A DNA stretch of 64,000 bases, from contig JBMNEO010000001.1 of assembly GCA_050948825.1 (NCBI GenBank), positions 11,673 through 75,672 on the forward strand, written 5' to 3'. Positions 13,459 through 50,784 of the stretch are shown here, one piece after another. How positions within the stretch are numbered: position 1 is the stretch's first letter; each line of letters opens with the position of its first letter. The stretch comes from Dethiobacteria bacterium. GTDB taxonomy: Bacteria; Bacillota; Dethiobacteria; DTU022; UBA8154. The notes beneath the pieces were generated by a model that was given only the letters and a program-made list of their open reading frames with translations, had not been told where the DNA came from and searched no databases. The position numbers and the translations under genes were made by a program.

Positions 13459-14151
13459 CTAGCTTGATGCTTCTGTCTCTCCAAAGGGGCACACGAAGTC
13501 ATCCGGCAGCTCGGGTGCGGGAGCGTTGTTGGTGGTCTGCCCAGCTATTACGCCGAAGACGAGATTGATTTTGGAGCCCTGATAATCGTTTCCGGTCCCC
13601 TCCCCGGGCAACGTGACTTCAACATCGTAAGTTAAAGACTCGCCGGGTGCCAGTTCAGCTAAACCAAACTTCAGGGGTTTTTGATCTTTGGGAAGTATGT
13701 CATTATAGAAAACGCTTTCTCCAAGATTAAAATCATCCCAGGTTGCGCCTCTGACCGAAATTTTGAAGTTTAATACATCGGAGAGACCCTTGTTGCCGTA
13801 GCCTTTATCAGCAAGCATTTGTGTCATGCCTGGATATTCATTATCAAGAGCATCGTTTAATTGGCCTTTGATATCTTCCCAGCAAAGGTAACCCATGAAC
13901 TGAAGGTTCTTTGAGCCTTCATTGACAACTACGAATGAACCCTTTTCCACATCGCCGGGGTTCATGTTATTAATTTCTAAATCTTCTTCTCCTTCAAGGT
14001 TGAGCTCATCAATGGCAATCAGCAGTGTCCCCGCGCTAAAGGTTACCTCATCCGAAACATCGCTGTCCGTGAACCAGGCCATGGTCGCGCCGCCGATAAC
14101 GGCTGCCGCCAGGGCGATAACCAACAAACTTACCAACATTCTGCTTTTCAT
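13459..14151 (-). CDS. TasA/camelysin-family secreted protein with a SipW-cognate signal peptide. First gene downstream of a c-di-GMP riboswitch.
   Basis: MKSRMLVSLLVIALAAAVIGGATMAWFTDSDVSDEVTFSAGTLLIAIDE..NPGDVEKGSFVVVNEGSKNLQF..GNDYQGSKINLVFGVIAGQ. A GGAGGG RBS precedes it. Confidence 0.75.
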   Translation of the reverse strand: MKSRMLVSLLVIALAAAVIGGATMAWFTDSDVSDEVTFSAGTLLIAIDELNLEGEEDLEINNMNPGDVEKGSFVVVNEGSKNLQFMGYLCWEDIKGQLNDALDNEYPGMTQMLADKGYGNKGLSDVLNFKISVRGATWDDFNLGESVFYNDILPKDQKPLKFGLAELAPGESLTYDVEVTLPGEGTGNDYQGSKINLVFGVIAGQTTNNAPAPELPDDFVCPFGETEASS

Positions 14152-14186
14152 TTTTTTCCCTCCATTAATTTTTTTTGGATTTTTTT

Positions 14187-14280
14187 AAACCCCATCTGGC
14201 GGCCAGGCTGCCATTCTATGGAAAGGCCCTGTGGCTTTGCGCCCCTGCCTTTCGGCAGGTTTGCCCTTTTCAGAAACCTG
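14187..14280 (-). promoter_or_regulatory. c-di-GMP-I (GEMM) riboswitch aptamer in the 5' leader of the TasA-like gene 13459..14151
   Basis: The minus strand reads GAAAAGGGCAAACCUGCCGAAAGGCAGGGGCGCAAAGCCACAGGGCC..GCCUGGCCGCCAGAUGGGG. It has the GEMM hallmarks: GGCAAACC, a GAAA tetraloop hairpin and GGGGCGCAAAGCC. It is paralogous to the elements at 48060..48180 and 50862..50966. Confidence 0.75.
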
Positions 14281-14395
14281 CACACTCTTCGTTTAAACAA
14301 GTCCACATCTTTTCCACTGCGTTTAGCGGGCATCACCCCTTTCAGGTTGATATATTTTAACAGGCGCCGATACGGCTTTTCCCTGCTGATTGCAT

Positions 14396-15401
14396 TTACT
14401 GTTCACCCGGCCAGTTCGGCCATATTTCCCTTGCTGCCCCGTGGGTAGCCTGCACGGACTCGGCTTTCAAGCTGGACGGTCGTAAGCTCCCGTCCGCAGA
14501 CTCTTCGTCCAGGCAGCCTCTCAGCACCAGCGTTACCTCTTCGCCGCTTCTTACCGGTTCGATGTAGTAGAACCAGCCGTCAGGAGGTTCGCCTTCTTCC
14601 CAGGGAGAGCCTTCCGGCAACGTCCAGTTAATTGTACCTTCCACCGTAGTTTCGGAACCTTTGGTAAGGCAGGAATGAACCGCTATTAATCCCGGCGGGA
14701 TGCCCGATGGGAAGTCCGATAGATCAATCTCATGGGTGTAGCTCTCCGCCAGGTAATGGTATTTCTTATAATCGAAATGGCCCGGTATGGGGTTATTGCC
14801 TTGCCGGCTAAAGGAAAACCATCTACTGTATCTGCAAGATGAACGTGAGAGTCGATCATCTTCCAGCCGTCTTTTGTTTGGAGCTCGACGTAAAGTTTCC
14901 CGCTTTCCTGCCATACCCTGACCGTTCCGGCATCGATATTTTGACCTGCCAGCAATCTTACCGTCTTTTCTAAACCGTCATATTCAAAATACATCGCCCA
15001 GTTGCCCTGCCGGCCCTCATTAAAGGGGGGACCCTCTCCCCAGGCGGTTTCATCCTTTTCAGGTAAACCCGGTGAAGGTATCCTTCGGGGCAGGCGCGGA
15101 AAAAGGCTGTCTTGGTGCCGGTGTTTTTAAAGGTCCAGCTCAGCTCCTTGCATTCACCGGCCATCCACGTTAAGGCTTGGCCTTCATTGTCACTTTCGCT
15201 TTCCTCGCCGCCTTCGGGCTCCCCGTCCCCTTCGGTAATCACGGAAGCATCCGTTACTTCAAACTCCAGGGTCCCCACGACCATCTCCGCTGCGGAAGGA
15301 ATGGTATAGTCGTCGGTAAACCAGGCCATCGTTGTCCCGGCGACAACAAGAACGGTAACGAGGGAGATAACGATCAGGCTCCTTACGGCACTTATTTTCA
15401 T
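14396..15401 (-). pseudogene. TasA/camelysin-family gene split by at least two frameshifts into three overlapping ORFs
   Basis: The N-piece (14970..15401) has the TTMAWFTDDY signal peptide and ..TFKNTGTKTAFF... The C-piece (14396..14914) ends ..GWFYYIEPV..VQATHGAAREIWPNWPGEQ, which aligns with the C-terminus of 11899..13113 (..GYFYYKHILEP..IQTTHDASQEVWSWSPSE). The three pieces are in three different frames. Confidence 0.6.
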
Positions 15402-16201
15402 GGGTTCTTACATCCTTTCTCCTCGGAGAGAGGGCTGCTCTCCTTTTTTTTCTTTGCCGCTTTTTCCGCTTCCCACTCCGCAGCGTAGCGGAAAAGGTTG
15501 CGCAGTTCAAAGATGATGATCAGGACTCCCGGAATCATTACCAGGGAGATTATCCCGGTTTTGCTCTGGCCGAAATCCATCAGGTATCCGGCGTAAGGAA
15601 CGGCATGCTCGACCCTGCCGACGACCTTGTCCGCCATGACGGGGTTCTGATCGTTCACGTCGTTGGCGTCTCCGCGGGTGATGAAGCTGAGACCGCCGTC
15701 GCGGTTGACCTGCACCACGCGGTGGGTGGTCAGCGCCCCTTCACCGGAGGAGGGGCGGAAGGTGATGATATCACCCTCGACGATGTTCTCCGGGTTTTCA
15801 GGCTTGAGAAGGATCAGGCTGCCGGCGTCAAAGGCCGGGCTCATGCTGCCGCTGAGAACGATATACATCTGGTAGCCGAACACCCGGGGCGCGCCGCCGC
15901 CGGAGAGCCTGCTCTGCACCATGGAGTAGACCAGGACCACCATGATGATCAGGATACAGGCAAAAACGATATTCTCCACCAGGTTGAAGGCTTTTTTCAG
16001 GCCGCTCTGCCGCTTTTTGCCCTTTGCGACGGTTTCCGCCTCTGCTGTGCTGCTGCAGGCGGCTGTCTGCTCTTCCTGAAAATCCGTTTCCCGGGAGTGC
16101 GTTTCAGCAAGGTTTTTTTCTGCAGTTGTTGGAGAAATATTGCTGTTAAGTTCTTCTCCCATTTCCGGTTTGCCCCCTTTAAGGCTATATTGTTTCGGCA
16201 T
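15398..16201 (-). CDS. sipW: Signal peptidase I, archaeal/SipW type (S26B), with an acidic N-terminal extension and a C-terminal TM anchor
   Basis: ..VLSGSMSPAFDAGSLILLKPENPENIVEGDIITFRPSSGEGALTTHRVVQV..FITRGDANDVNDQNPV.. matches the SipW Ser/His core and the GDAN motif. It lies inside the TasA-like cluster. Confidence 0.8.
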   Translation of the reverse strand: MPKQYSLKGGKPEMGEELNSNISPTTAEKNLAETHSRETDFQEEQTAACSSTAEAETVAKGKKRQSGLKKAFNLVENIVFACILIIMVVLVYSMVQSRLSGGGAPRVFGYQMYIVLSGSMSPAFDAGSLILLKPENPENIVEGDIITFRPSSGEGALTTHRVVQVNRDGGLSFITRGDANDVNDQNPVMADKVVGRVEHAVPYAGYLMDFGQSKTGIISLVMIPGVLIIIFELRNLFRYAAEWEAEKAAKKKKESSPLSEEKGCKNP

Positions 16202-37215: not shown

Positions 37216-38145
37216 CTAGAACATTTCCCCAAATGATTGAAAAATCCTGAGAAACGCCGGGCCCAACAACACTACAAACAGGGTGGGGAAGATAAAGAAA
37301 ACCAGGGGGAAGAGCATCTTAATCGGAGCCTTCATAGCCGCCTCTTCAGCCCGCTGCCTGCGCTTCTGCCGCATGGTGGAGGCCTGGATACGCAATGTCT
37401 TCGCGATATTGCTGCCAAGCTGTTCGGATTGAATTACAGCGCTGATGAAACTGCTCAAATCGGGAACCCCTGTACGCTTTACAATCCCGCGCAGCGATTC
37501 CTCATGGGTCCTCCCCAGGCGCATCTCTTCCAGTGCACGTGCAAATTCTTTGCCGAGGGCGCCCGTTTCCTGTTCCGCAACTCTTTTTAAGGACATGGTA
37601 AAGCTTAAGCCGGCCTCCACGCTGACCAGCAGCAGGTCGAGAACATCCGGCAGGGCTTTTTGTATCTCTTTTTGCCGCTTTTGGGCCTGCGTGTTGAGAA
37701 TATTGTAGGGCAGCATCCCCCCGATAATGACCGCCAGCGCTGTTATTAAAAAAAAGTTCTGCCCCTCCAAGTTTCTCAACCAGGAAAAGGCCAGGGCTAA
37801 AAGGAGAAAAACCAGCACCATCGCCGCCTGCAGCGAAACAAAACCGTTAAATGATATATTCCACGGGTTGCCGGAATAGGAGATTTTTCTTTCAATACTA
37901 TTGCGGAATTCCCGCGGGGTAACGCTCCCCAAAACCCCGCTGATCTTTTTAAAACCTGGCCGGATCAGCCTTTCAAAGAAGGGTTTTTTTAGTTCATCTT
38001 CCTCATTGTCGCCCGTATCCATTTTTTTAACTTCCAGTAGCCGCTCCGCAAGCTGCCGCTTGCTGTTGAAAAATACTTCAGAAACAGCAACGACCAGCAA
38101 AACGACAGTGGAAAAGGTTAGCAAATATATTACCGGGGATAACAT
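37216..38145 (-). CDS. tadC: Tad pilus inner-membrane platform protein TadC (T2SSF domain)
   Basis: ..LPDVLDLLLVSVEAGLSFTMSLKRVAE.. is T2SSF. There are 3 TM helices. The start is at MLSPVIY with an AAAGAGGG RBS. The ORF track extends to 38229. Confidence 0.75.
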   Translation of the reverse strand: MLSPVIYLLTFSTVVLLVVAVSEVFFNSKRQLAERLLEVKKMDTGDNEEDELKKPFFERLIRPGFKKISGVLGSVTPREFRNSIERKISYSGNPWNISFNGFVSLQAAMVLVFLLLALAFSWLRNLEGQNFFLITALAVIIGGMLPYNILNTQAQKRQKEIQKALPDVLDLLLVSVEAGLSFTMSLKRVAEQETGALGKEFARALEEMRLGRTHEESLRGIVKRTGVPDLSSFISAVIQSEQLGSNIAKTLRIQASTMRQKRRQRAEEAAMKAPIKMLFPLVFFIFPTLFVVLLGPAFLRIFQSFGEMF

Positions 38146-38314
38146 TTTTACACCCTCTTTAACGTTCAATAATTCCGGAATCCAAATGACTATATCCGGT
38201 GCAAATCTCAGGCGCGCCCAGGGCGACATAAATCGGATCGTTATCGCGCACGGTGAAACCTACATACCGGGTCCGGTCCGAAGCCTAGACTCGATCGTAT
38301 GATCTTCGAATACA

Positions 38315-39250
38315 TTACCCGACGATCTGCATAACCACTGCAAAGCCAAGCATGAGCAGCCCCAGGGTTTCCTGCACGAGCGTTAACATATAGTCAGGGT
38401 TCATGATCGCTAAAAAAGCGGCAACAGCAAAGGGTAATAATACAATAATGATCGCGGACAATTTGCCCTGAGCCGTGAGGGTTTTAATCTCCCCCTGGAT
38501 TCTGACACGTTCCCGTATGGTGTGCGCGATATTATCCAGGATCTCGGCAAGGTTGCCGCCGACCTGTTTCTGGATGAGCAGTGCGGTTATGACAAGATTA
38601 AGATCGTCGCTGTCGATCCTCTCCCCAAGGTTATGCAGCACTTCCTCAAGCTGTTTGCCCATACGGTTTTCCAGGATTACCCGACCAAATTCCTCGCCGA
38701 TCGGGGGGGGCATCTCCCGCTGGACTACAGCCATGGCCTGTGGAAAACTAAAGCCTGACCTGAGGCCGCTGGAAACGATGGAGAGCGCTTCCGGAAGCTG
38801 GCGTGTAAAAGCGGCAGTCCTGCTGTTTTTTTTAAGATCGACAATGATTCCGGGGAGCTTTAACCCTGCCAGCCCGGAAAGGATGGAAAACAGCAAAGAT
38901 CCGCTAATAATGTAAATAAGGAAGAACATCGCCAATCCGCTAAAAAAAGTCAGCCCCGCATACTCTTCCGCGCGCATTAAGATGTGCGCCTGCAGCAGCT
39001 TTTTCTGGATTGTATGCTGATTGCCGCGCCGGGAGATCGTTTTTCCCAGCAGGCCCAAAAAACGCAACAGTTCGCCCCCGAAACCATTAGACCTGACCGT
39101 CTCCGGCTGTGCAGGGGCGGCCTCAGGCATGGTACAGGTTTTTAACCTTTCCCTGACAAGCATCTGTGAAGAAAAAATAAGCTGGTGCATCCCTGCAAAC
39201 AGCAATATTACGGTTAAAAAAGCACCGCTACAGGCTACGTAAAACATCAT
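38315..39250 (-). CDS. tadB: Tad pilus inner-membrane platform protein TadB (T2SSF domain)
   Basis: ..LPEALSIVSSGLRSGFSFPQAMAVV.. is T2SSF. TM helices sit at both ends. Confidence 0.75.
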   Translation of the reverse strand: MMFYVACSGAFLTVILLFAGMHQLIFSSQMLVRERLKTCTMPEAAPAQPETVRSNGFGGELLRFLGLLGKTISRRGNQHTIQKKLLQAHILMRAEEYAGLTFFSGLAMFFLIYIISGSLLFSILSGLAGLKLPGIIVDLKKNSRTAAFTRQLPEALSIVSSGLRSGFSFPQAMAVVQREMPPPIGEEFGRVILENRMGKQLEEVLHNLGERIDSDDLNLVITALLIQKQVGGNLAEILDNIAHTIRERVRIQGEIKTLTAQGKLSAIIIVLLPFAVAAFLAIMNPDYMLTLVQETLGLLMLGFAVVMQIVG

Positions 39251-39265
39251 CTTAGAACCTCCTGG

Positions 39266-40576
39266 TTAGAACCTTCTGAAAGCCGGCTCGGGATGTTTAT
39301 CCTGAAATATTTCCATACTCAATTTCTCATTGTATGCTTTCAGCTTTTCCATACACTGGGGAATAATGCCGGTCGGCATGTGTCTTCCGCTAATAAAGCC
39401 TTTTTCATTAATACCTGACTGGTTATAAACAAAGATATCCTGCATGGTGATCGTATCGCCTTCCATCCCGACCACCTCAGTTATCTTGACTATTTTGCGG
39501 CTCCCGTCATTAAGGCGAGACTGCTGAATTATAAGGTCGATAGCCGAGGAAATCTGCTCCCGGATCGCCCGCAGGGGTAAATCCATCCCCGCCATAAGCA
39601 CCATTGTCTCCAAACGTGCCAGGGCATCTCTGGGATTGTTGGCATGCAGGGTCGAGATTGATCCATCGTGTCCCGTATTCATCGCCTGAAGCATGTCAAG
39701 AGCCTCGCCCCCCCTTACCTCACCGACCACAATACGATCGGGGCGCATCCGCAGTGAGTTGATGACGAGATCCCTGATCGCAATTCTTCCCTTGCCGTCT
39801 ATATTCGGGGGACGGCTTTCCAGGGTAACAACGTGCTCCTGCCAGAGCTGCAGCTCTGCCGCGTCTTCAATGGTAACGATGCGCTCCTTTTCAGGGATGA
39901 AGCTGGAAAGCACGTTTAAAGTAGTGGTTTTACCGCTGCCGGTCCCTCCGGAGACGATGATATTCGCCCGGGCGCGCACGCACCCCCTTAAAAAGTTTGC
40001 TATTTCCCTGGTCATCGTGCCAAAGCCGATCAAATCCTCTGACTTAAAGGGGTCCGTGGCAAATTTCCGGATTGTCAGAACAGGACCCCTGACGGCCAGC
40101 GGCGGGATTATTGCGTTCACCCGCGAGCCGTCCGGCAGGCGGGCGTCAACCATCGGCGAACGATCGTCGATCCTTCTTCCCAGAGGAGCAAGGATCTTCT
40201 CTATCGTATGAACAACATGGGCATTGTCCCGGAAACATACACCGGTTTTTATAATTTTTCCGTCCCGTTCAATAAAAACCTGGTCGCAGCTGTTTACCAT
40301 AATCTCTGTAACGGTAGGATCGTGAATGAGCGGATCTATCGGACCGTAACCGAGGATTTCATCTGCCACATCCTCAATGACTTTTTGGCTGTCGCTTTGC
40401 GAGAGTTCCCGGCCAAACTCATTCAGGACAACTTCTAAAGTGCGGTTTATTTGCTTGTAGAGATGTTCCTTTCGAGCCGGATTCATTCTCTCCGGGAAAA
40501 ATGCGCTGTCTGTCGTACCAATGACCTGTCGCAGGGTTTCACTGACAATTATGTCCAGCTCTATTTTCTTATTCAT
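39266..40576 (-). CDS. cpaF: Tad/Flp pilus assembly ATPase CpaF/TadA
   Basis: ..IIVSGGTGSGKTTTLNVLSSFIP..ERIVTIEDAAELQL..RMRPDRIVVGEVRGGEALDMLQAMNTGHDGSISTLHAN.. Confidence 0.9.
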   Translation of the reverse strand: MNKKIELDIIVSETLRQVIGTTDSAFFPERMNPARKEHLYKQINRTLEVVLNEFGRELSQSDSQKVIEDVADEILGYGPIDPLIHDPTVTEIMVNSCDQVFIERDGKIIKTGVCFRDNAHVVHTIEKILAPLGRRIDDRSPMVDARLPDGSRVNAIIPPLAVRGPVLTIRKFATDPFKSEDLIGFGTMTREIANFLRGCVRARANIIVSGGTGSGKTTTLNVLSSFIPEKERIVTIEDAAELQLWQEHVVTLESRPPNIDGKGRIAIRDLVINSLRMRPDRIVVGEVRGGEALDMLQAMNTGHDGSISTLHANNPRDALARLETMVLMAGMDLPLRAIREQISSAIDLIIQQSRLNDGSRKIVKITEVVGMEGDTITMQDIFVYNQSGINEKGFISGRHMPTGIIPQCMEKLKAYNEKLSMEIFQDKHPEPAFRRF

Positions 40577-41744
40577 TTCCTGTTGCCACCCCGTTTTCTA
40601 ATATTTTACGTGCTATGCGCTGAATGCCGCGGCTGATTCTTGCCCGGGGATTGAGCAGGACAACAGGAACGCCTTTGTTTAATGACGAAGATACCAGCCT
40701 GTGCTCCGCCGGCAGCAACCCGTAAAGGCTTTGCTCCAGAGTTGTCTCGACATCCCTGCTCTTTATCTCACCCCGCGGTTCTGCCTTGTTAAGCAGCAGT
40801 CTTATCTTATGCCTGGGATAGTTAATAGTATTTAAAGAAACCATGCAGGCCCTGGTATTGCGAATCGCAGCTAAATCCTGCGTGGTAACAAGCATGAGCA
40901 GGTCGGCTTCCTGAAAGGCAGGGCTCATTGCGTCACCGGCACTTACAGGCAGATCTATAACAACATAATCAAATCCTTCTTGCAGGATCTTGATGATTGC
41001 TTCAACATGATCGGCGCCAATGAAATTTGTCATCTGCGGCTGTACGTTGGCGGCCAGCACCTTGACGCCGGATTGATGCTCAGTGAGGTAGCCGTTTAAC
41101 AGATCACTGTCAAGGTTGCGGATATCATTGACAACATCGGCAATTGTATAACGCGGAATAAGATTTAAGGCCAGAGAAATACTGCCAAAATCGAGGTCTA
41201 GATCTAACAGCGCTACCTTCTTACCTTTATGCTTCGCCAGGGAAACCGCAAGGTTTGTGGAGAAAAAGGTTTTGCCGACGCCTCCTTTGGTGCTAAATAC
41301 CGTAATAACCTTTCCCCTGCGGAGGTCTTTTTCCGCTCCGGGCTTTTTCTCTCGTTGCAGCTCCCTTTTCTTCTTCTCCAGCTGAAAGCTGCGGTGGATG
41401 GCATCAACCAGTTTTGATGGTGGAAAGGGATAGACGATCGCGTCCTTTGCCCCGGCAATAATCGTTTTACGCATAGCTTCTTCATTTATTTCATCTTCAA
41501 TCATGATAGTCGAAATCCAGGAGTGGGATAAAGAAAGCTGTTCCGCCAGCTTGTAACCGTCTTCCGAAAGAAGTGCATCAATGAGCATCACATCCGGATT
41601 ACTTTTCTCCACCATTTCCAGCGCCTCTTCAGCACTGCCGGCTTCACCTTCCAGCTTGATAAACTCCACATTGGAAAGGGTTCCGGCGATAGCTGACCGC
41701 TTTTCCGGGTCATTTTCAACAACGAGTACTTTAATACGCTCCAT
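40569..41744 (-). CDS. Response-regulator receiver domain fused to a CpaE/TadZ-like MinD/ParA-family ATPase
   Basis: N-terminal REC: MERIKVLVVENDPEKR..DVMLIDALL. The P-loop reads VITVFSTKGGVGKTFFSTNLAVSLA, with ..DYVVIDLP... Confidence 0.75.
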   Translation of the reverse strand: MERIKVLVVENDPEKRSAIAGTLSNVEFIKLEGEAGSAEEALEMVEKSNPDVMLIDALLSEDGYKLAEQLSLSHSWISTIMIEDEINEEAMRKTIIAGAKDAIVYPFPPSKLVDAIHRSFQLEKKKRELQREKKPGAEKDLRRGKVITVFSTKGGVGKTFFSTNLAVSLAKHKGKKVALLDLDLDFGSISLALNLIPRYTIADVVNDIRNLDSDLLNGYLTEHQSGVKVLAANVQPQMTNFIGADHVEAIIKILQEGFDYVVIDLPVSAGDAMSPAFQEADLLMLVTTQDLAAIRNTRACMVSLNTINYPRHKIRLLLNKAEPRGEIKSRDVETTLEQSLYGLLPAEHRLVSSSLNKGVPVVLLNPRARISRGIQRIARKILENGVATGNE

Positions 41745-41748
41745 GAAA

Positions 41749-42492
41749 TCACCTCTCCCTGAACGATTCTAAGTTTTCGGGGCTATAATAATCAAGCCCT
41801 ACTGTTTCTTCGTCGAGCGGCGAGCGCAGGCTCAGGTGGAAAGTCCCGTTAACATTGGCAAAGGCAAGCACTTCGGCCTGCGCCGGAGTAACCAGAAGCG
41901 TTACTGAATTTACAAGCTGCCTTTCCTCATTATCCTGCGGAAGGGTATGCTCTCCGACAGCCAGCACAGTGACATTTTGAACCACGGTGTAAACGATGGG
42001 GACTTCTTTGATGTCAGTATCGTCATAGGAAACCAGAACATCAACCTTATCCCCCGCCGAAATATAACCGGCAACCCCGATTTCCTCGCTGTTTATGGGG
42101 ATAGAAAACCCCCTGAGTTTTTCCGGCACACGGTAAGACAGCCCGGCCCGCCTGACGTCCGTAGCAACCCGGCTTTTCAGGACCTGCTCTCCTTTAATAA
42201 TATCCGCCCTGGAGATGCCGCCGACAGCCTCGTCCAAACTCGTCAGGGCCTCCGGATGCAGAGTATCTTCCGGGACAGAAGTAATTGTGAGCATCTCCGA
42301 TGTTATTCTGCTGTGCTGCGGTATTGTAATACCGGCGACCACCACGTCTGTTTGTGGGACGGGCGGCAGCGTTGAAGCCGCAGCAGGGTTTTTAAGATAC
42401 TGGTTTAACGCTAAAACTGTAATAAGTCCCATAATCACCGCCAATAACAAAAGCTTTCTACCGGATTTCAAAAGAATACCCGCCCCTTTCAA
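41749..42492 (-). CDS. cpaB: Flp pilus assembly protein CpaB/RcpC (SAF + RcpC domains, N-terminal TM)
   Basis: ..VVAGITIPQHSRITSEMLTITSVPEDTL.. then ..RGFSIPINSEEIGVAGYISAGDKVDVLVSY.. Confidence 0.75.
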   Translation of the reverse strand: MKGAGILLKSGRKLLLLAVIMGLITVLALNQYLKNPAAASTLPPVPQTDVVVAGITIPQHSRITSEMLTITSVPEDTLHPEALTSLDEAVGGISRADIIKGEQVLKSRVATDVRRAGLSYRVPEKLRGFSIPINSEEIGVAGYISAGDKVDVLVSYDDTDIKEVPIVYTVVQNVTVLAVGEHTLPQDNEERQLVNSVTLLVTPAQAEVLAFANVNGTFHLSLRSPLDEETVGLDYYSPENLESFRER

Positions 42493-42499
42493 TTGAGCT

Positions 42500-43474
42500 T
42501 TACTCCACTAGCACAAGGTTGTAAACACCAAAGTCATTTTCATCAGCAGGATCATCGGGTGAAGAAGGCGAAGCGTTATTCGGCAAAAACCATTTAATAA
42601 ACTTCCCCGTAACATTACACATATTTCCACTGCCCTCTACCCCTGTTATCTCGAAGCATGCAAAGCCGGCCACCTGTATCGAACCTCTCCCGCTTACATC
42701 TGTTATGCTGCTGTCATAAAGCGGGATTATAACAATCGTGTCATTATGGTCAAGCCTGTAACTTATCCCTTGATTTGTAGGCCCGGACATGTTTCCCGGT
42801 TCGGTGTCGATATAATCACCAATGGAGATTACTCCCTGGTAACCGTGCTTGATATTATTCCTGTAGTTGTTCGCTCCCGTACCCCCGAGAGCGATTGCGC
42901 CGAAATTACCATTGCCGATGGATCCGTCCTGCCATTTTCCAACTTTGAGCAGGACCTCTTCGCCGTAACTATAATCTTCTCCGGGAGGCGGCATAGGTAC
43001 GATAAAGGGAACAATCCCGGTTACCGCCCTGGCCGGCTTGATCGCAGCTTTGGCCCGCGCAGATACTGACGTTGAATGAAAGCCCAGGACCTTTGCAAAT
43101 GAGAAGTCAACAACCTGGCTGGCGGATACCGTGATTTCACAATTGTTGCCGGAGACAGTTACGGTAACATTCTCCGGCTCTGCCCCGTTTTTCGAAGCAT
43201 ATTCAAGCGCTCTCGTTTCGGCTTGAGCGGGGTTGCTTACCAGTTCCTGGGCTCCCGCCAGCGCTGCGGCATCGGCAGCGGTAACCATTTTTCTTCTGGC
43301 ATAGGCGATACTCCCTACATCGGTAACCATCGCCGTTAAGCCGAGCAAAAATACCATTGCGGCGGCGATAATTACAAGGACACCCCCATTTTCATCGGTT
43401 AGCAGCAAATTAAACTTTTTCTTCATTACACAGTCATCCTTTTTGCTTGCCGGGCCATGATCAAACTCAATCAT
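42500..43474 (-). CDS. TadE/TadG-like pseudopilin / pilus-assembly protein (Tad-family N-terminal domain)
   Basis: ..NGGVLVIIAAAMVFLLGLTAMVTDVGSIAYARRKMVTAADAAALAGAQE.. is the typical Tad TadE/G-like N-terminal domain. Its ATGA overlaps tadE. Confidence 0.6.
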   Translation of the reverse strand: MIEFDHGPASKKDDCVMKKKFNLLLTDENGGVLVIIAAAMVFLLGLTAMVTDVGSIAYARRKMVTAADAAALAGAQELVSNPAQAETRALEYASKNGAEPENVTVTVSGNNCEITVSASQVVDFSFAKVLGFHSTSVSARAKAAIKPARAVTGIVPFIVPMPPPGEDYSYGEEVLLKVGKWQDGSIGNGNFGAIALGGTGANNYRNNIKHGYQGVISIGDYIDTEPGNMSGPTNQGISYRLDHNDTIVIIPLYDSSITDVSGRGSIQVAGFACFEITGVEGSGNMCNVTGKFIKWFLPNNASPSSPDDPADENDFGVYNLVLVE

Positions 43475-43980
43475 GTGACCGGCAGGATTTTCGTGCCGTC
43501 CTCATCGCCCCCGGGGATAAGGGCAAGGTCCGCCGTCGAAATTAAGGCAGAGGCGGCCTGCCCAACCTCGAGGCGCATTGACGCGGTGGAGACCAGCGGA
43601 AAGACATCTCCGACCATTCTATCCAGAATGGGAACAATTACATCCACAGATGCATTAACCGTGACTTCTATTTCTTCGCCAACGATACGGTTTGAAGGGC
43701 CGGGGGTGATGGAGATAGAATCGGAAGAAACATTGAGAAATGGCGTAGAAGCCACACAATCTAAAACCATGCTCTTAACATCGTCATCTGATTTTCCGAC
43801 CGCAGCAAGGCGCGCTCCATCCCTGACTGCATGTGAAATAGTAAGCTGGCCATTAAAGATCAAACCAAACTGAAGTATGCCGAAAAGCAGCGGGGGCAGG
43901 ACAAATATTAATAAGAGCGCAAACTCAACCAGAGACTGCCCCTTTTCCGTTTTTTTCATAAACTTCAGCAGCTTAACCAT
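43471..43980 (-). CDS. tadE: TadE-family minor pilin
   Basis: ..EKGQSLVEFALLLIFVLPPLLFGILQFGLIFNGQLTISHAVRDGARLAAVG.. is the TadE signature. Confidence 0.7.
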   Translation of the reverse strand: MVKLLKFMKKTEKGQSLVEFALLLIFVLPPLLFGILQFGLIFNGQLTISHAVRDGARLAAVGKSDDDVKSMVLDCVASTPFLNVSSDSISITPGPSNRIVGEEIEVTVNASVDVIVPILDRMVGDVFPLVSTASMRLEVGQAASALISTADLALIPGGDEDGTKILPVT

Positions 43981-44068
43981 GCTCTCACACTCCTAACCTG
44001 GACATAGCCGGCGGCAACAGGCTTGCCCCGCCTGCTTGCAGGCAACGGCAGCACGTTGCCGGAATAAT

Positions 44069-44668
44069 TTAAAACAGGCTGTATAAAACGGGCTGTGCAG
44101 CTCCGCTTAAGGCGATAATTGTTCCTGCTGCTATGGCTACACCGTAAGGCAAATAGACCTTTTCCGCTGAATGCGTCTCAAAAGAAGATGATAATAATAA
44201 TGATAGCTGATTAAGATAAGGGTTTCTGAATCTAAAATAAAGTAAAGCAAGCAAGGGAACGGCAACAAAGGCCAGTATTTTCTTTAATATTCTTAAAAAC
44301 TGCCGGTTATAAATTAGATAGATAACAGCAAGAATTCCCCCGCAAAAAGCGGTAAATACCGCGGCATAAAAAACAAACTGCAATCCTTTTAAAGCGCCGA
44401 TAGCCCCCAGGAGTTTTACATCGCCCCCTCCCATGCCGCCGAGCATAAAGGGGATGAAAAAAATGGCTAACCCTAATAGCAGGCCGTAAACGCTGAACAA
44501 AAAACCTTCCGGCCCGCCCGTAATTGTATGAGCCAGCAAACCCCAGAGCATTACCGGAAACGTCAGGAAGTTGGGGATTTTTTTCCTGGTAAGGTCAAAA
44601 AAAAGCGCTGCCAGCAGCAGGGCAAGCAATATATAATCGTTATACTGTAAAGGCAGTTGTAAAATCAT
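44069..44668 (-). CDS. cpaA: Prepilin peptidase (A24 family, CpaA/TadV-like)
   Basis: About 6 TM helices. ..FMLGGMGGGDVKLLGAIGALKG.. supplies the second catalytic Asp. Confidence 0.75.
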   Translation of the reverse strand: MILQLPLQYNDYILLALLLAALFFDLTRKKIPNFLTFPVMLWGLLAHTITGGPEGFLFSVYGLLLGLAIFFIPFMLGGMGGGDVKLLGAIGALKGLQFVFYAAVFTAFCGGILAVIYLIYNRQFLRILKKILAFVAVPLLALLYFRFRNPYLNQLSLLLSSSFETHSAEKVYLPYGVAIAAGTIIALSGAAQPVLYSLF

Positions 44669-44762
44669 AAGAACGCTCCTGCTAATTCAAGTAATCGGGG
44701 GAGAAAACACCCCGGAGATACTGCTCCCGCGATGAAGAGGCCTTTTGTATCTTCATTACGTT

Positions 44763-44936
44763 TTATGGCCAGTTCAGAGCCTCGTGATTGATAAATGTAT
44801 TAAATAAAGCCAGCACTTGCCCCCCCAGCTGCCTCAGGGCAAAAGAGACAATCAGGACAACGAAGGCAATAATCAGGGAATATTCCATCAGACCCTGTCC
44901 CTCATCCAAATACAACTTTTTTATGTAAACAGTCAT
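44763..44936 (-). CDS. flp: Flp-family pilin (57 aa)
   Basis: Not in the ORF track because it is under 60 aa. Minus-strand translation is MTVYIKKLYLDEGQGLMEYSLIIAFVVLIVSFALRQLGGQVLALFNTFINHEALNWP*. It has the Flp motif G-x-x-x-EY plus a hydrophobic helix, with an AAAGAGGA RBS. Confidence 0.7.
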   Translation of the reverse strand: MTVYIKKLYLDEGQGLMEYSLIIAFVVLIVSFALRQLGGQVLALFNTFINHEALNWP

Positions 44937-44966
44937 AGCTTATCCTCTTTTTGCTGAAGATTTTTT

Positions 44967-45001
44967 GTTACCTGCCCCCTGGGAAACAGGGGGCAGGTAA
45001 C
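44967..45001. other. Perfect 15-bp-stem hairpin (GTTACCTGCCCCCTG-ggaaa-CAGGGGGCAGGTAAC) between the two flp genes
   Basis: Seen directly. It lacks a 3' U-tract on the minus strand. It probably acts as a stability/attenuation element, as is common downstream of major pilin genes. Confidence 0.5.
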
Positions 45002-45091
45002 AAAAGCTTATCTTTAAGAATTTAGCTATACTAATCTACTTCGCACGCTCCCGTCTAATCCTTTGTAATTTCTCAAAAACTATTAATTTCA

Positions 45092-45211
45092 TCACCCAAT
45101 AGTTCCTAGCACCCCAATAACCGCCACCGCAATCAACACCAGGATCAAGGCGTATTCCGCCAGGCCCTGTCCTTCCTCGTCCCTGACCAATCTGGAAATC
45201 ATTTTCAGCAT
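45092..45211 (-). CDS. flp: Flp-family pilin (40 aa), first gene of the Tad operon
   Basis: Not in the ORF track. MLKMISRLVRDEEGQGLAEYALILVLIAVAVIGVLGTIG*. It has the Flp motif GQGLAEYALIL and a perfect AAGGAGG RBS. Confidence 0.7.
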   Translation of the reverse strand: MLKMISRLVRDEEGQGLAEYALILVLIAVAVIGVLGTIG

Positions 45212-45356: not shown

Positions 45357-45833
45357 TTAGTCCATTGAGGAACACTCATTATCCGGACACAGAATCAGGT
45401 GAAACAAACCCCTGTAACAGGCCCCCACCAGCGCTTCGGCCTCCTCGGGGTAAACAGCTAGCGTTACCGCAGTTTGATGCTCTCCGGTTTCTTCTTCCGC
45501 CTCCCCGGAAGAGAGCACGAGGGCATTTTTTGCGGCGGTGTAGACCGGGGGCGGTTCACCGTTGCCGCGGTCAATCGCAACAAGCACGTCCACCCGGGCG
45601 CCGCAGCTCATATACCTGGACAAACCGGATAATTTATTTACCGGGATGGATATGCCGCGCATCTTCTTGGGAATCAGGCTGGAGAGGTTTCTTTCCGGAT
45701 TTGTTTCCGCTAGAGGCGGGTCAACTTCATTTTCCCGCTGCTCATCCCGAACCTCATTTTTAACCTCATCTGCAACCTCTTCTTCAACCTCCGGCTCCTC
45801 TTCAGCTTCCCGGACCGGAAGGGGTTCCACCAA
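45357..45833 (-). CDS. CpaB/RcpC C-terminal-domain-only protein with an acidic N-terminal segment (TTG start). A fragment or remnant of a second CpaB.
   Basis: ..RGISIPVNKLSGLSRYMSCGARVDVLVAIDRGNGEPPPVYTAAKNALVLSSG..TAVTLAVYPEEAEALVGACYRGLFHLIL aligns with residues ~127-235 of the CpaB at 41749..42492. It has no TM or SAF domain. Confidence 0.5.
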   Translation of the reverse strand: MVEPLPVREAEEEPEVEEEVADEVKNEVRDEQRENEVDPPLAETNPERNLSSLIPKKMRGISIPVNKLSGLSRYMSCGARVDVLVAIDRGNGEPPPVYTAAKNALVLSSGEAEEETGEHQTAVTLAVYPEEAEALVGACYRGLFHLILCPDNECSSMD

Positions 45834-45860: not shown

Positions 45861-47975
45861 TCACGGGGATAGATCGCTATGTTGCCTTCCCCGAAAGAAG
45901 CCGGAGACAGCGGAGGAGATGCTGGAGGACTGCTCGCCGGCGGAAATATCCCTCCGGACAGCGGAACTAATGAGCACCAATCTGTTTTCCCTGTTACCCT
46001 GCCTGTCAAACTCACTTCTGCTTTGGCTGAAATATTCTTTTCCTTCCGTTTTAACCGGATGATCTGTTTCCACTTCAGCCGGCTCATTTGGATCAACTGC
46101 GTTATTTAGATTAGCTTCTGGATTAACTTCTTCTTCTGGATCAACTGCTTCATCTGTCTCATCAATGTCATTAGCATCATAAGTATTATCAATATCATCA
46201 ATATCATCAATATCATCAATATCATCTATTTGATCAGTATCATCAGTATCATCTGTTACATCCAGATAATCTGTATCATCGTCTATTGCCCCCGAATAAC
46301 TTGTTTCCTCTGTATAACTTGTTTTATACATATAATTTGTTTCATTTAATACATCAGCTTCATCCATATCATCTGTTCCATCTGTTTCATAGGCTTCGTA
46401 TGTTTCATAAGCTTCATCTATCTCGCCCATTTCATCCAGATCTTCCAGATCATCCAGATCCTCAAGATCTTTTTTTTCTTTTATTTCCCCGATCATTTCA
46501 TCTGATCCGGCCACCCCATCATCTTCATGTAAATATTTCGCCTCTTCAGCAAGCGGCTCCACTGGCGGCTCTTTTTCCTCCACTTCTTCCTGTTCGCGGG
46601 GTTGCTGTGCCTGGTATTTCTCCTGTAAGCCTTCAATGCAGTCCGCCTCACCGCAAGCCCTCAACTTATCAATACATCTGGGGGTTGTCCCCGTGTATTT
46701 ATGCTCGCCCTGGACCATCCCGCTCTCGTTCAGACCGTCCTGCTGAAAGACAAAGATATCCTGCAGGGTTATATGGTCTTTCTCCATTCCCACCACTTCG
46801 CTAATCCTGGTTATTTTGCGCGTCCCGTCGCTGAAACGGGACTGCTGGATAATCAGCTCTATGGCAGAACTTATCTGCTCTCTGACAGCGGGCAGGGGAA
46901 GGTCCATACCGGCCATCAGCACCATGGTTTCCATACGAGTCAGCGCCTCACGGGGATTATTTGCGTGCAGGGTGGATATAGAACCATCGTGTCCTGTATT
47001 CATGGCCTGCAGCATGTCAAGCGTTTCAGCCCCTCTGACCTCTCCGACCACGATGCGATCCGGCCTCATGCGCAGGGAATTGATCACCAGTTCCCTAATC
47101 GTATACTGTCCCCTGCCTTCAATGTTGGCCGGGCGGCTCTCCAGGGTAACGACGTGATCCTGCTGTAGTTGTAGCTCGGCTGTATCTTCGATAGTAATTA
47201 TCCTTTCGTGATCGGGTATGAAACTTGAAAGCACATTCAGGGTGGTCGTCTTACCGCTGCCGGTCCCGCCGGAGACGATAATATTGACGCGCGACCTCAC
47301 GCAGGCCTTGAGAAACATAACCATCTCCTCTGTCATCGTTCCCAGTTCTAATAAGTCTTCCACGGTAAAGGGATCAGCAGCAAATTTTCGGATCGTCAGT
47401 GACGGCCCCTTGAGGGCCAGGGGCGGAATAATGGCATTTACGCGTGAGCCGTCCGGCAAGCGGGCATCTACCGTCGGTGAACTCTCGTCAATCCTCCTGC
47501 CCAAGGGGGTGATGATTTTATTAATAACGTGTAGAACATGCTCGTTATTCCGGAAAGTAACCTCCGTCTTGGCAATTCTGCCGTCCCGCTCCACATAGAC
47601 ATTATCATAGCCGTTCACCATAATTTCAGTAACGGCAGGATCATCGAGCAGCGAATTTATCGGGCCATAACCAAATATCTCATCGCAGACGTATTGAATT
47701 ACTTTTTGCTTGTCGCTCTGTGAAAGATGAAGGCTGCTCTCTTCCAGTACCGCTACCAGTGTATCGTAAATCTGCTCCGTGAACTGCCTCATTTGGAATG
47801 AGTCGAGCTTTTCTAGCACCAGCTTATCGTCTACTGAATCTATAACCTTTGTTAAGGTTTTGGATGCAATCTCTTCCAGCTCTTTTTTCCTGTCTGTGAT
47901 ATTATTTGATGAGGGTTCCCTGCTAAGCAGCTGCGGTCTCTTCCCATTGAACCTTAATTGCTGTTTTGGAAACAT
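45861..47975 (-). CDS. Second CpaF/TadA-family ATPase carrying a ~300-aa C-terminal acidic low-complexity extension with (DID)n and ETYEAY repeats. It lies immediately downstream of a c-di-GMP riboswitch.
   Basis: The start is set at MFPKQQLRF.. with a GGGTGGG RBS. The ORF track start at 48101 would overlap the riboswitch. The core is ..IIVSGGTGSGKTTTLNVLSSFIPDHERIITIEDTAELQL..GHDGSISTLHAN... The tail is ..DDTDDTDQIDDIDDIDDIDDIDNTYD... The last ~40 codons look out of frame. Confidence 0.75.
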   Translation of the reverse strand: MFPKQQLRFNGKRPQLLSREPSSNNITDRKKELEEIASKTLTKVIDSVDDKLVLEKLDSFQMRQFTEQIYDTLVAVLEESSLHLSQSDKQKVIQYVCDEIFGYGPINSLLDDPAVTEIMVNGYDNVYVERDGRIAKTEVTFRNNEHVLHVINKIITPLGRRIDESSPTVDARLPDGSRVNAIIPPLALKGPSLTIRKFAADPFTVEDLLELGTMTEEMVMFLKACVRSRVNIIVSGGTGSGKTTTLNVLSSFIPDHERIITIEDTAELQLQQDHVVTLESRPANIEGRGQYTIRELVINSLRMRPDRIVVGEVRGAETLDMLQAMNTGHDGSISTLHANNPREALTRMETMVLMAGMDLPLPAVREQISSAIELIIQQSRFSDGTRKITRISEVVGMEKDHITLQDIFVFQQDGLNESGMVQGEHKYTGTTPRCIDKLRACGEADCIEGLQEKYQAQQPREQEEVEEKEPPVEPLAEEAKYLHEDDGVAGSDEMIGEIKEKKDLEDLDDLEDLDEMGEIDEAYETYEAYETDGTDDMDEADVLNETNYMYKTSYTEETSYSGAIDDDTDYLDVTDDTDDTDQIDDIDDIDDIDDIDNTYDANDIDETDEAVDPEEEVNPEANLNNAVDPNEPAEVETDHPVKTEGKEYFSQSRSEFDRQGNRENRLVLISSAVRRDISAGEQSSSISSAVSGFFRGRQHSDLSP

Positions 47976-47999: not shown

Positions 48000-48036
48000 A
48001 ATCAGGAAAACAAATACCCGGCGCCGGCGCCGGGAT
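48000..48036 (-). terminator. Intrinsic terminator forming the expression platform of the riboswitch upstream of the cpaF paralogue
   Basis: On the minus strand, CCCGGCGCCGGCGCCGGG is followed by UAUUUGUUUUCC. It lies between the aptamer and the RBS. Confidence 0.6.
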
Positions 48037-48059
48037 GCACGAATAAGGATTATAAAAAT

Positions 48060-48180
48060 CCCGTCTTCGGCAACCTGGCAATCATGGCCCACTAAGATCA
48101 TGCTAAGATCATGTTACTGAAGGCTTTAGACCCATGGCTTTGCGTCCCTGCCTTTCGACAGGTTTGCCTTTATCGGTCAG
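48060..48180 (-). promoter_or_regulatory. c-di-GMP-I (GEMM) riboswitch aptamer
   Basis: The minus strand reads CUGACCGAUAAAGGCAAACCUGUCGAAAGGCAGGGACGCAAAGCCAUGGGUCUAAAGCC...GCCAGGUUGCCGAAGACGGG. It has GGCAAACC, a GAAA tetraloop and GGGACGCAAAGCC, matching the canonical Vc2-type aptamer. Confidence 0.85.
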
Positions 48181-48192
48181 GAAAATGTCTCC

Positions 48193-49470
48193 TCACCTGA
48201 TAATTAAATCATGGTTTTTAAATGAGTTTGTATAGTATTTTGATTCGGGAGTATTTCTGTAAAAGATCTGATTAGACATCTCCAACGCACTGAGATAGCA
48301 CTCCCTAACGTCAATCTCCGCAAGTTCCAGCAGCGTTGTCTTGATCGCCAGCTGCTCCCAGTCACCCGATTCATAAGCTAAGATCAGTTCATAAACATCC
48401 TTGAATCTGCTTTTGCCGCCCAGCAGCGCAAGTTTGATATCATCGGATATTGGAAGCTCTGCTAATATGTCGGGCAGAGGCCGGTCGAGAAAAGCGTCGA
48501 TGAGAGAAAACATACCCATCAGGAAAAGATCCGGGCTGCGGTCCTTCAGGCCAACTCTGGGTGCAATCAGCTCACAAAACCTTGCCCTGCAGATCGCCGT
48601 GATAATAAGCTCGTCCGGCTTGTTATCGCCTATGCCTCTTAAAGCAATAAGGGAAAGCCATTTACTGAGTTCTTTCTGTCCTAAAAGAACAAGCGCCTGC
48701 TTAATGGAGCGGATTTCATTCCTGAAACCAAAGGATAACGAGTTGATAAACTTGAGCAACTTGTATGAAAGAGAAACATCCATTTTTATATAGTCTTCAA
48801 TCCGGTCAAAATCCAGATCCTGCTTGTTGACTTCCTGCAGTATTTTCAGGTAGATGAGCTTGAAGCTGGGGATATCTTTTCCGCTAAGAATAAGGGGTTT
48901 GCTGAAAAAATACCCCTGGAAGTAAGAATAACCCATCTCCAATGCTTGATTAAATTCATCCCTGGTCTCCACTTTTTGCGCCAGAAAATGTATTTTATGT
49001 TTGCCAACCCTCTGAACGATCGCTTCTCTTTCTTTCTTTTGGGTTTTCAAAAAATCCACTTTGATAATATCAACCAGATCTATCAGCGGCAATAATTTGT
49101 TATTGTAGCTAAAATCGTCCAGCGCCAGATAGTAGCCCAGCTCCTTCAACTTTCTGCAGGCGTTTAAAGTTTTTTCGTCCAGCTCAATATCCTGCAGGAT
49201 CTCTATAACAATGGCCTCATTGGGTAGAAGGGTGGCCACATCATTTTCCAGCAGGTTTTTGGTAAAATTTATGAAAGCCTTTTTGCCCCTGGTAAGCGTT
49301 TCCAGACCAATAAGCAGAAAGCTGTTGGTAATAACCTCAAAAGAAGCCTGGTCTCCGTTTAAAGTGGAATAAAATTTGTTAACCCCGGAACGATACAGGA
49401 GCTCGTAGGCAAACACTTCCTGATTTCGATTAAAGATTGGCTGTCTGGCCACATATATCTCCATATCCAT
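48193..49470 (-). CDS. EAL-domain + HDOD-domain protein (c-di-GMP phosphodiesterase-like / signalling)
   Basis: ..QPIFNRNQEVFAYELLYR.. is the EAL motif region. ..ALDDFSYNNK..IIKVD.. then an HDOD-like C-terminal half (..ALVLLGQKELSKWLSLIAL..). The start is at MDMEIY with a GGAAGAGGGG RBS. The ORF track extends to 49551. Confidence 0.7.
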   Translation of the reverse strand: MDMEIYVARQPIFNRNQEVFAYELLYRSGVNKFYSTLNGDQASFEVITNSFLLIGLETLTRGKKAFINFTKNLLENDVATLLPNEAIVIEILQDIELDEKTLNACRKLKELGYYLALDDFSYNNKLLPLIDLVDIIKVDFLKTQKKEREAIVQRVGKHKIHFLAQKVETRDEFNQALEMGYSYFQGYFFSKPLILSGKDIPSFKLIYLKILQEVNKQDLDFDRIEDYIKMDVSLSYKLLKFINSLSFGFRNEIRSIKQALVLLGQKELSKWLSLIALRGIGDNKPDELIITAICRARFCELIAPRVGLKDRSPDLFLMGMFSLIDAFLDRPLPDILAELPISDDIKLALLGGKSRFKDVYELILAYESGDWEQLAIKTTLLELAEIDVRECYLSALEMSNQIFYRNTPESKYYTNSFKNHDLIIR

Positions 49471-49557
49471 GGGTTTAATCCCCTCTTCCTTTCTCTTCTT
49501 TCTCCTTACAAGTCTCTTACACGGGCCTTCTACAGGCTTCTTGCAGGGCAAGATAAT

Positions 49558-50760: not shown

Positions 50761-50784
50761 GCCTGTCCCCCCGGGAGGGACCGA

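Follow-up and report, generated by a model that had tools for sequence, protein, structure and literature searches.

Class I cyclic di-GMP (c-di-GMP) riboswitches were described in 2007 by Weinberg as the GEMM-I motif, associated with genes that include pilus genes (cpaA) and c-di-GMP signalling domains; they come in receptor-bearing and receptor-less forms and frequently carry terminators (PMC1950547). Here, we analysed 64,000 nucleotides (nt) of a Dethiobacteria bacterium (assembly GCA_050948825.1, contig JBMNEO010000001.1, positions 11,673 to 75,672), hereafter the window, and describe three aptamers of this class –RS1, RS2, and RS3– in front of genes for a TasA-like fibre protein, a CpaF/TadA-like ATPase paralogue, and a membrane transglutaminase-like protein. 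These riboswitches are common, and three more would be unsurprising in themselves. We consider it quite probable that RS1, RS2, and RS3 are functional-looking c-di-GMP riboswitches of class I, with RS1 acting as an ON switch, RS3 as an OFF switch, and RS2 probably as an OFF switch. High c-di-GMP would turn on the TasA-like fibre and turn off the transglutaminase-like enzyme and an extra pilus ATPase. One aptamer class would seemingly work in opposite directions within one locus, which parallels the adhesin/protease circuit of Clostridioides difficile.

In C. difficile, class I riboswitches precede flgB and the gene of the PPEP-1/ZmpI protease, and class II riboswitches precede the adhesin substrates of this protease and a pilin operon (reviewed in PMC11477304). 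The likeness lies in a single messenger with reciprocal riboswitch control of surface proteins and of an enzyme possibly acting on them; a sortase and type IV-like pili are also part of the system. However, the window uses class I aptamers in both arms, and its fibre is TasA-like and SipW-processed, whereas the C. difficile adhesin is sortase-anchored. The window enzyme has a transglutaminase fold and no known substrate, the pilus arm is apparently OFF instead of ON, and the logic of the window is predicted from sequence and folding. The opposite logic of the two arms also suggests the fibres as a possible target of the transglutaminase-like protein.

A second described system is the enrichment of tandem c-di-GMP-I riboswitches before COG1305 transglutaminase-like genes in Bacillota (PMC12452182; statistics on tandem riboswitches in PMC9481103). 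The same gene family stands behind c-di-GMP-I aptamers here, and the aptamers are in tandem in the related loci L003, L019, L038, L044, and L013. In the window, by contrast, RS3 is single, and RS2 comes two genes later and would control the next operon.

TasA-family genes of the model organisms are known to be under the control of protein regulators. Both the Bacillus subtilis tapA-sipW-tasA operon and sipW-bsaA of Clostridium perfringens (PMC7395162) resemble the RS1 region in having a SipW peptidase beside TasA-family subunits, but for these two, regulation has been described as protein-based. Our literature search, with many journals outside its reach, found no c-di-GMP riboswitch linked to TasA, SipW, or camelysin genes. 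The aptamers are ordinary GEMM-I members, and the link of TasA-like genes with a receptor-less, Shine-Dalgarno (SD)-sequestering subtype is apparently undescribed. If the link holds, the c-di-GMP regulon of uncultured anaerobes would be widened by a large family of fibre proteins that are TasA-like and SipW-dependent.

We put forward a broader reading tentatively and with some doubt: the receptor-less aptamer before TasA-like genes may represent a coherent, undescribed functional subclass of c-di-GMP-I, a translational ON switch for SipW-processed fibre subunits of uncultured anaerobic Bacillota, in which the ligand-contacting 3' strand doubles as anti-SD, and which is reciprocal to OFF-type paralogues before transglutaminase and CpaF-RcpC genes. 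If true, this would be a circuit made of RNA only, which selects either matrix fibres or functions in pili or fibre remodelling.

Three class I aptamers and their ligand pocket

We searched the whole window with cmscan against all Rfam families at their gathering thresholds. Matches were found at exactly three sites, all on the minus strand and all full length (model positions 1-87 of 87 or 1-80 of 80):

14194..14274, minus strand: RS1 aptamer, c-di-GMP-I, receptor-less subtype with a GAAA loop (RF03167, 68.0 bits, E 6e-14)
48065..48177, minus strand: RS2 aptamer, c-di-GMP-I, with a tetraloop receptor and a long P2 insertion (RF03167, c-di-GMP-I-GGC, 73.0 bits, E 2.2e-15)
50873..50965, minus strand: RS3 aptamer, canonical c-di-GMP-I with a tetraloop receptor (RF01051, 77.9 bits, E 1.3e-13)

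The scores exceed the gathering cut-offs of 35 for RF01051 (RS3, 77.9) and 59 for RF03167 (RS2, 73; RS1, 68). Three further matches with lower scores, still above threshold, belong to other families of clan CL00126 and add a second family at each site. Our own covariance model R1, built from six aptamers, scores RS1 at 84.3 bits and RS2 at 88.7 bits. A reading made earlier from the sequence only had placed GEMM-I elements on the minus strand at 14187-14280, 48060-48180, and 50862-50966, and each of these intervals encloses one Rfam match. The hallmarks it named –GGCAAACC, a GAAA-capped hairpin, and GGG(A/G)CGCAAAGCC– are present. It had expected RF01051 at all three sites; clan matches do occur at all three, but RS1 and RS2 score best with RF03167.

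Aligned with R1, 58 related aptamers show changes on both sides in 16 of the 21 pairs, so that the covariation proposed for P1/P2 is borne out. Paired cells make up 89% of this alignment against 27-48% with slid partners, and the observed values were not reached in any of 500 shuffles, counts that are biased towards the proposed structure because the alignment was fitted to the R1 model. The P1 hairpin (2-bp and 6-bp stems with a 3-nt loop between them and a GNRA cap), the AAA linker, and the covariation-supported P2 are all found. RS1, RS2, and RS3 are all true c-di-GMP aptamers of class I. They share with GEMM-I (RF01051) the two-hairpin architecture, the GGC-AAA-C internal loop, the GNRA-capped P1, the AAA linker, and a 5' regulatory position before surface-structure and c-di-GMP signalling genes.

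The letters of the ligand pocket are canonical in the three aptamers: (A/G)-G-GCAAAC, CGC-A-AA, and G-C-C at the aligned columns, with G, A, and C at the pocket columns also in nearly all of the 58 relatives. We take these columns to be G20, A47, and C92 in the numbering of the Vc2 crystal structures. Vc2 is the c-di-GMP-I aptamer of Vibrio cholerae, in whose structures the two ligand guanines have A47 stacked between them and are contacted by G20 and C92. Because the pocket is canonical in all three, c-di-GMP is the expected ligand of each of them.

An A at the G20 position marks the riboswitch for cyclic AMP-GMP (c-AMP-GMP), GEMM-Ib (PMC9481103); all three window aptamers have G there, and we reject this identity. 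The best scores of RS1 and RS2 raise another option, since at both sites no other family of the clan scores as high as RF03167: they could be c-di-GMP-I-GGC variants with an altered, unknown ligand. We regard this as very improbable. By the RF03167 consensus, the variant is recognised by a G after CGC (CGCGAA); RS1 and RS2 read CGCAAA, as RF01051 does, with a blank in the match line at this position, and the A is found in all 58 relatives. The score advantage more likely comes from P2, where the RF03167 model is without the receptor and inner-stem positions of RF01051.

P2 also separates the three aptamers. RS2 and RS3 carry a tetraloop receptor (UCUAAAGC...C(A/U)A(U/A)GAU), and the P2 of RS1 (GGGCCUUUCC...GAAUGGCAGCC, GAAA loop) is without it. 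The receptor is an optional feature, found in about half of c-di-GMP-I members (PMC1950547), and is not needed for membership. Compared with GEMM-I, RS1 differs in having a GAAA loop without the receptor that usually accompanies GAAA (PMC1950547), and RS2 in a P2 insertion of roughly 35 nt; nothing essential differs. RS2 and RS3 share their flanks as well, CCUGACCGA on the 5' side and GCCAGGUUGCCGAAGAC(A/G)GGGAUUUU on the 3' side. The proposal of three paralogous riboswitches is thus right for RS2 and RS3, which are close paralogues, and not for RS1, a distinct receptor-less subtype.

In three related loci, an aptamer before a TasA-like gene reads AAAAGCAAACC or AAA-GCAAACC (L010:3853-3944, L035:3881-3968, and L030:3877-3963). 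These aptamers have an A or a gap at G20, the change known to switch specificity to c-AMP-GMP.

RS1 and the TasA-like fibre array

RS1 ends 42 nt before the ATG of the TasA-like gene. The features around it, including those of its proposed control, are:

13459..14151, minus strand: TasA-like protein, 230 amino acids (aa), with a SipW-type signal peptide (PF12389, 47 bits; TIGR04088, 34.8 bits)
14158..14163, minus strand: GGAGGG, SD site of the TasA-like gene, read from the sequence
14197..14202, minus strand: CCGCCA at the 3' end of the RS1 aptamer (C92-equivalent and start of the P1 3' strand), proposed anti-SD
14218..14225, minus strand: CUUUCCAU at the apex of the RS1 P2, second possible anti-SD, pairing with AUGGAGGG (14165-14158)
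15398..16201, minus strand: SipW-type signal peptidase, encoded in the array that holds RS1, upstream of it (TIGR02228, 125.5 bits; cut-off 51.85)

The TasA-like protein exceeds the cut-offs of PF12389 (Peptidase_M73, 22.5; matched over residues 3-83 only) and TIGR04088 (19). Its AF2 model, with a pLDDT of 74.6, has the TasA fibre 8AUR as top PDB match (E 2.5e-6, TM 0.46), followed by an archaeal bundling pilus. The SipW-dependent signal peptide, the profile matches, the fold, and the adjacent SipW peptidase place it in the TasA/camelysin family (PF12389), and it is predicted to form a fibre.

No terminator lies between RS1 and the TasA-like gene (scan of 13400-15000), nor did the minus-strand scan find any terminator-like site between 21939 and 8525; RS1 is therefore embedded in a long array. 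The sequence-only reading had described just this, a TasA paralogue within a TasA/SipW array with RS1 in its middle and no terminator platform, and had guessed at translational control. The guess gains support from folding and SD covariation across the family.

Without ligand, CCGCCA –which includes the ligand-contacting C–, the CUUUCCAU of P2, or both would pair with the GGAGGG site. With c-di-GMP, both strands would be locked into the aptamer and the ribosome-binding site freed. The CCGCCA x UGGAGG duplex of the window has -6.3 kcal/mol, and the CUUUCCAU x AUGGAGGG pairing forms in the unconstrained minimum free energy (MFE) structure of the RS1 leader. When the aptamer is enforced, that is, when folding is constrained to the MFE structure of the isolated aptamer, the unpaired probability of the SD rises from 0.17 to 0.96. 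Over the 34 receptor-less leaders before TasA-like genes, RS1 included, the mean rises from 0.42 to 0.75.

None of the receptor-less leaders has a terminator before the gene, and their linker is uniformly short, A-rich, and ends in GGAGG. Throughout the family, the bases after the conserved GCC (the P1 3' strand) complement the bases just before the leader's own GGAGG. Pairing of the aptamer 3' strand with its own SD flank reaches -7.08 kcal/mol, against -5.81 +/- 0.27 kcal/mol for swapped flanks (permutation p = 2e-5), and the Watson-Crick extension gives p = 5e-5. Independent compensatory sets are AUAU/AUAU, GAUU/AAUC, GGUUUGU/ACAAACC, and, in metagenomes, AAUUAAUU/AAUUAAUU. The lack of a terminator together with this pairing of the 3' strand and its own SD in the receptor-less subtype predicts RS1 to be a translational ON switch. 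RS1 suggests a compact design, in which the ligand-binding strand would itself be the anti-SD.

Several points weigh against this prediction. SD accessibility rises by more than 0.3 in only 16 of the 34 TasA-type leaders. The window helix that family covariation supports is weak (5 bp and a mismatch), and the stronger CUUUCCAU x AUGGAGGG helix cannot show covariation because its letters are conserved. A sigma-70 consensus scan found no credible promoter upstream of RS1. RS1 could instead act on transcription or RNA stability, through Rho-dependent termination or RNase access, or mark an internal transcript from an unrecognised promoter. This would fit a site to which neither promoter nor terminator can be assigned, as well as the little-changed SD accessibility in about half of the leaders, and the A-rich unstructured linker could be an entry site for Rho or RNase E. 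We find it rather unlikely, as it leaves aside the covariation between 3' strand and SD flank across independent lineages, the uniformly short linker with a strong GGAGG at its end, and the RS1-type aptamers standing before successive TasA-like cistrons of one array (L026, L038). Translational ON control remains our preferred reading of RS1.

Two sequences upstream of RS1 stand apart from this model. An extended -10-like TGTTAAAAT is kept only in the near-identical L020 and was not used. GCAGGUUU (14274-14281), just upstream of RS1, complements AAACCUGC (14255-14262) within the aptamer (-10.3 kcal/mol); the pairing may compete with the P1 hairpin and is partly kept in L020.

Downstream of the TasA-like gene, the array continues to its first minus-strand terminator at 8525-8499:

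11899-13113, minus strand: TasA-like paralogue (Pfam)
10648-11652, minus strand: TasA-like paralogue (Pfam)
8679-10313, minus strand: SdrD_B-domain protein (Pfam)

Upstream of RS1 there are, besides sipW, genes for Big_1 and PilZ proteins. The gene of the PilZ-domain protein (18924-19529, minus strand) shares the terminator-free array with sipW and the TasA-like genes, and the array may also receive c-di-GMP input through this protein receptor.

The gene directly upstream of RS1 differs between otherwise matching sequences. Window positions 14396-15401 (minus strand) are about 99.8% identical to L001:1015-2013 and to L002, two independent metagenome contigs, and an identical TasA-like gene is present on two metagenome contigs. 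Relative to L001 and L002, the window has six small insertions (15083, 15064, 14800-14798, 14487, 14481, and 14473), all in this gene, which break a 332-aa open reading frame (ORF) into ORFs of 143 and 172 aa. Loss of function as a pseudogene, variation between strains, or an error of assembly could account for the split ORF.

A second fibre-type array at 22005-31696 (minus strand) has no riboswitch. It encodes a sortase, a second signal peptidase of the archaeal type (24273-25364), proteins with DUF5305 and DUF1102, and a two-component pair of the LuxR type.

RS3 and RS2 before the transglutaminase-like and Tad/Flp operons

RS3 precedes two genes, and its leader contains the elements of two possible layers of control:

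49558..50760, minus strand: membrane transglutaminase-core protein, 400 aa (PF01841, 100.8 bits; cut-off 23)
48193..49551, minus strand: EAL(partial)-HDOD protein, second gene behind RS3, ending 16 nt before RS2 (PF08668, 70 bits; PF00563, 49.3 bits)
50797..50813, minus strand: RS3 terminator stem, CCCCGGCCTGGCCGGGG and TTTTTCGG, with a U-tract to about 50790 (terminator scan)
50863..50886, minus strand: RS3 antiterminator strand, formed by the aptamer 3' half and the P1 extension (GCCAGGUUGCCGAAGACAGGGAUU), pairing with 50824-50802
50765..50788, minus strand: UUUGUCGGUC, overlapping the SD-sequestering hairpin GUCCCUC/GGGGGAC (helix list)

The first gene had been read as a membrane transglutaminase-like protein, which agrees with its N-terminal hydrophobic helix and Transglut_core domain. 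Its translation contains GVCEDYA...HSWVE...ADPT, in our reading the motifs of a Cys-His-Asp catalytic triad.

In the RS3 leader, the aptamer 3' half (GCCAGGUUG...CAGGGAUU) complements AAUCCCCUG...CGGCCUGGC, the 5' half and loop of the terminator, with a 9-bp helix GCCAGGUUG x CGGCCUGGC of -14.5 kcal/mol. For a transcript ending at the terminator, the terminator probability is 0.10 in the free fold and 0.99 with the aptamer enforced, and the antiterminator pairing is also found in the L048 orthologue. In addition, UUUGUCGGUC perfectly complements the P1 5' strand GACCGACAAA (50965-50956), a module also present in L035 and L048. Without ligand, the aptamer 3' half would pair with the terminator 5' half as an antiterminator, and the P1 5' strand would pair with UUUGUCGGUC and open the hairpin that hides the ribosome-binding site. 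With ligand, the terminator and the SD hairpin would both form and turn off the transglutaminase-like and EAL-HDOD genes. Because the antiterminator is built from the aptamer 3' half and the terminator goes from 0.10 to 0.99, RS3 is predicted to be an OFF switch, and the terminator and SD-hairpin layers agree in this.

RS2 begins 16 nt past the EAL-HDOD stop codon and leads into the next operon:

45861..47975, minus strand: CpaF/TadA-like ATPase paralogue, 704 aa, with an acidic DDIDD-rich repeat tail (PF00437, T2SSE, 233.8 bits)
45357..45833, minus strand: RcpC/CpaB C-domain ORF (PF16976, 55.9 bits)
48007..48034, minus strand: RS2 intrinsic terminator, CCCGGCGCCGGCGCCGGG and TATTTGTTTT at 48034-48017, CCCGGCGCCGGCGCCGGG then UAUUUGUUUU over the full interval (terminator scan)
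48041..48050, minus strand: AUCCUUAUUC, complementary to the RS2 SD region GAAUAAGGGU (47994-47985)
37216..45211, minus strand: rest of the Tad/Flp locus (Pfam and small ORFs)
45092-45211 and 44763-44936, minus strand: two Flp pilins (small ORFs)
39266-40576, in the Tad/Flp locus: second, ordinary CpaF

The ATPase gene matches its earlier description as a CpaF paralogue with an acidic repeat tail followed by a CpaB C-domain ORF, by its T2SSE domain, DDIDD tail, and PF16976 match. Apart from the pilins, the Tad/Flp locus encodes a prepilin peptidase, TadE, TadG, CpaB, CpaE, the second CpaF, TadB, and TadC. With its T2SSE domain and the Flp pilin, prepilin peptidase, TadB/C, CpaB, and CpaE of the locus, the extra paralogue has the features of a Tad/Flp ATPase. 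The terminators proposed at 48000..48036 and 50785..50815 were recovered by our scan at 48034-48017 and 50813-50797.

RS2 would follow the same OFF design as RS3 and form a second checkpoint before the CpaF paralogue and the Tad/Flp genes. The terminator at this position is kept in three orthologous leaders with compensatory changes. Two of the three behave like RS3, with terminator probabilities, free and enforced, of 0.00 and 0.80 in L048 and of 0.00 and 0.96 in L049. None of the RS2- or RS3-type leaders that we folded shows the opposite trend, a terminator lowered by the aptamer. In the window itself, the antiterminator of RS2 is degenerate, and AUCCUUAUUC x GAAUAAGGGU, a 10-bp helix of -10.3 kcal/mol, forms in the aptamer-enforced MFE structure. 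The RS3-like flanks, the behaviour of L048 and L049, and the lack of any leader with the opposite trend favour RS2 as an OFF switch, which we propose with low confidence.

The evidence against OFF control has to be set beside this. The window RS2 terminator forms in both states (0.90 free, 0.99 enforced), as do those of L050 and several tandem transglutaminase leaders. Turning off a Tad pilus component at high c-di-GMP is contrary to what is usually expected of adhesion genes. In the sigma-70 scan for RS2 and RS3 promoters, only 9-of-12 matches were found, no more than in shuffles. For all three riboswitches, ligand binding and the direction of control were derived from sequence and thermodynamic folding only. 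RS2 and RS3 might instead be ON switches: by blocking termination, c-di-GMP would induce the transglutaminase-like protein along with the Tad ATPase. ON control would suit the usual picture of c-di-GMP promoting adhesion and the many GEMM representatives in which a terminator overlapping the P2 3' strand implies ON control (PMC1950547), and the folding of RS2, L050, and several tandem leaders does not separate the states. We think it unlikely: the RS2 and RS3 terminators lie outside the aptamer, whose 3' strand complements the terminator 5' half in an OFF layout, and with the aptamer enforced, the terminator becomes more probable in RS3, L044, L048, and L049 and less probable in no leader. OFF control is thus kept for RS3 and, less firmly, for RS2.

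Both leaders have a further long-range complementarity, outside the proposed model, that closes the whole leader by pairing the 5' flank with the start-codon region. In RS2, GGAGACAUUUU (48182-48192), 5' of the aptamer, complements AAAAUGUUUCC (47968-47978); in RS3, CAUCCUG (50966-50972) complements CAGGCAUG (50758-50765).

Two TGA codons 12 nt apart (45833-45863, minus strand) separate the CpaF paralogue from the RcpC-domain ORF, which continues in the same frame and has no obvious ribosome site before it. In relatives, among them P0123, P0125, and P0168, CpaF and RcpC are fused in one protein of 630-760 aa. Selenocysteine read-through from CpaF into the RcpC ORF appears unlikely, given the two TGA codons 12 nt apart.

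Just upstream of RS3 are genes for a REC-HD-GYP protein, sensor kinases, and a GGDEF-HD-GYP protein. A 920-aa protein encoded at 58796-61558 (minus strand) combines a SelA-like domain (PF03841, 151 bits) with PAS, GGDEF, and HD-GYP domains; SelA-like input domains are unusual among c-di-GMP enzymes.

Aptamer-gene pairings in related genomes

All three pairings of aptamer and gene recur in other uncultured Bacillota. For the TasA-like gene, we compared 44 loci, 43 from species-representative genomes plus L003; the best match among GTDB representative genomes is 45% identical. The aptamer ends 26-76 nt before the start codon in 33 of these loci. The L003 orthologue, 67% identical, has the same aptamer subtype in front, and its locus also holds a tandem RF01051 pair before a transglutaminase gene. 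By a simple motif test, a TasA-type signal peptide follows 31 receptor-less aptamers and none of 19 receptor-bearing ones, and behind several of the other receptor-less aptamers the gene is also TasA-like but has a variant of the motif. In metagenomes, the RS1-derived pattern was found on 36 contigs, of which 35 were usable and at least 23 have it before TasA-like genes.

For the other two riboswitches, a class I aptamer and a GC-rich terminator precede the gene in the three CpaF-RcpC loci examined (3/3), one of them in the complete genome of Candidatus Contubernalis alkalaceticus. Locus L048 has the same order as the window: aptamer, EAL-HDOD, aptamer, CpaF-RcpC, Flp, and Tad genes. Single or tandem aptamers stand before transglutaminase genes in L003, L019, L044, L013, L035, and L036. 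The riboswitch links are a first functional hint for the CpaF-RcpC fusion and the EAL-HDOD protein, both poorly understood.

In L048, the RS3-like aptamer is followed (8067-8472) by only a short ORF resembling the transglutaminase N-terminal membrane helix, and then by EAL-HDOD; the enzyme domain seems to have been lost. In L021 (1024-1165), from a Dethiobacteria metagenome-assembled genome, an RS1-type aptamer runs straight into the middle of a TasA-like signal peptide; the linker, the ribosome site, and the start codon are absent, as though a deletion had removed them.

Two further gene families stand behind c-di-GMP-I aptamers. On the other 12 contigs (L052, L055, L057, L063, L064, L066, L068, L071, L073, L075, L077, and L078), the RS1-type aptamer precedes a different secreted protein with an N-terminus like VKRRLSVVLALAMVFSLVLSSVAMAAP...ISNELEL, and the palindrome AAUUAAUU stands behind the aptamer and again ahead of the ribosome site. 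Near TasA-like genes, receptor-type c-di-GMP-I aptamers precede another family, which has an N-terminal receiver-like domain and starts with LYLLL(A/V)(E/D)NN(F/Y)ISSREIK (L035:5656-6819, L027:4190-6419, L022:6629-8505, and L032:6368-8230).

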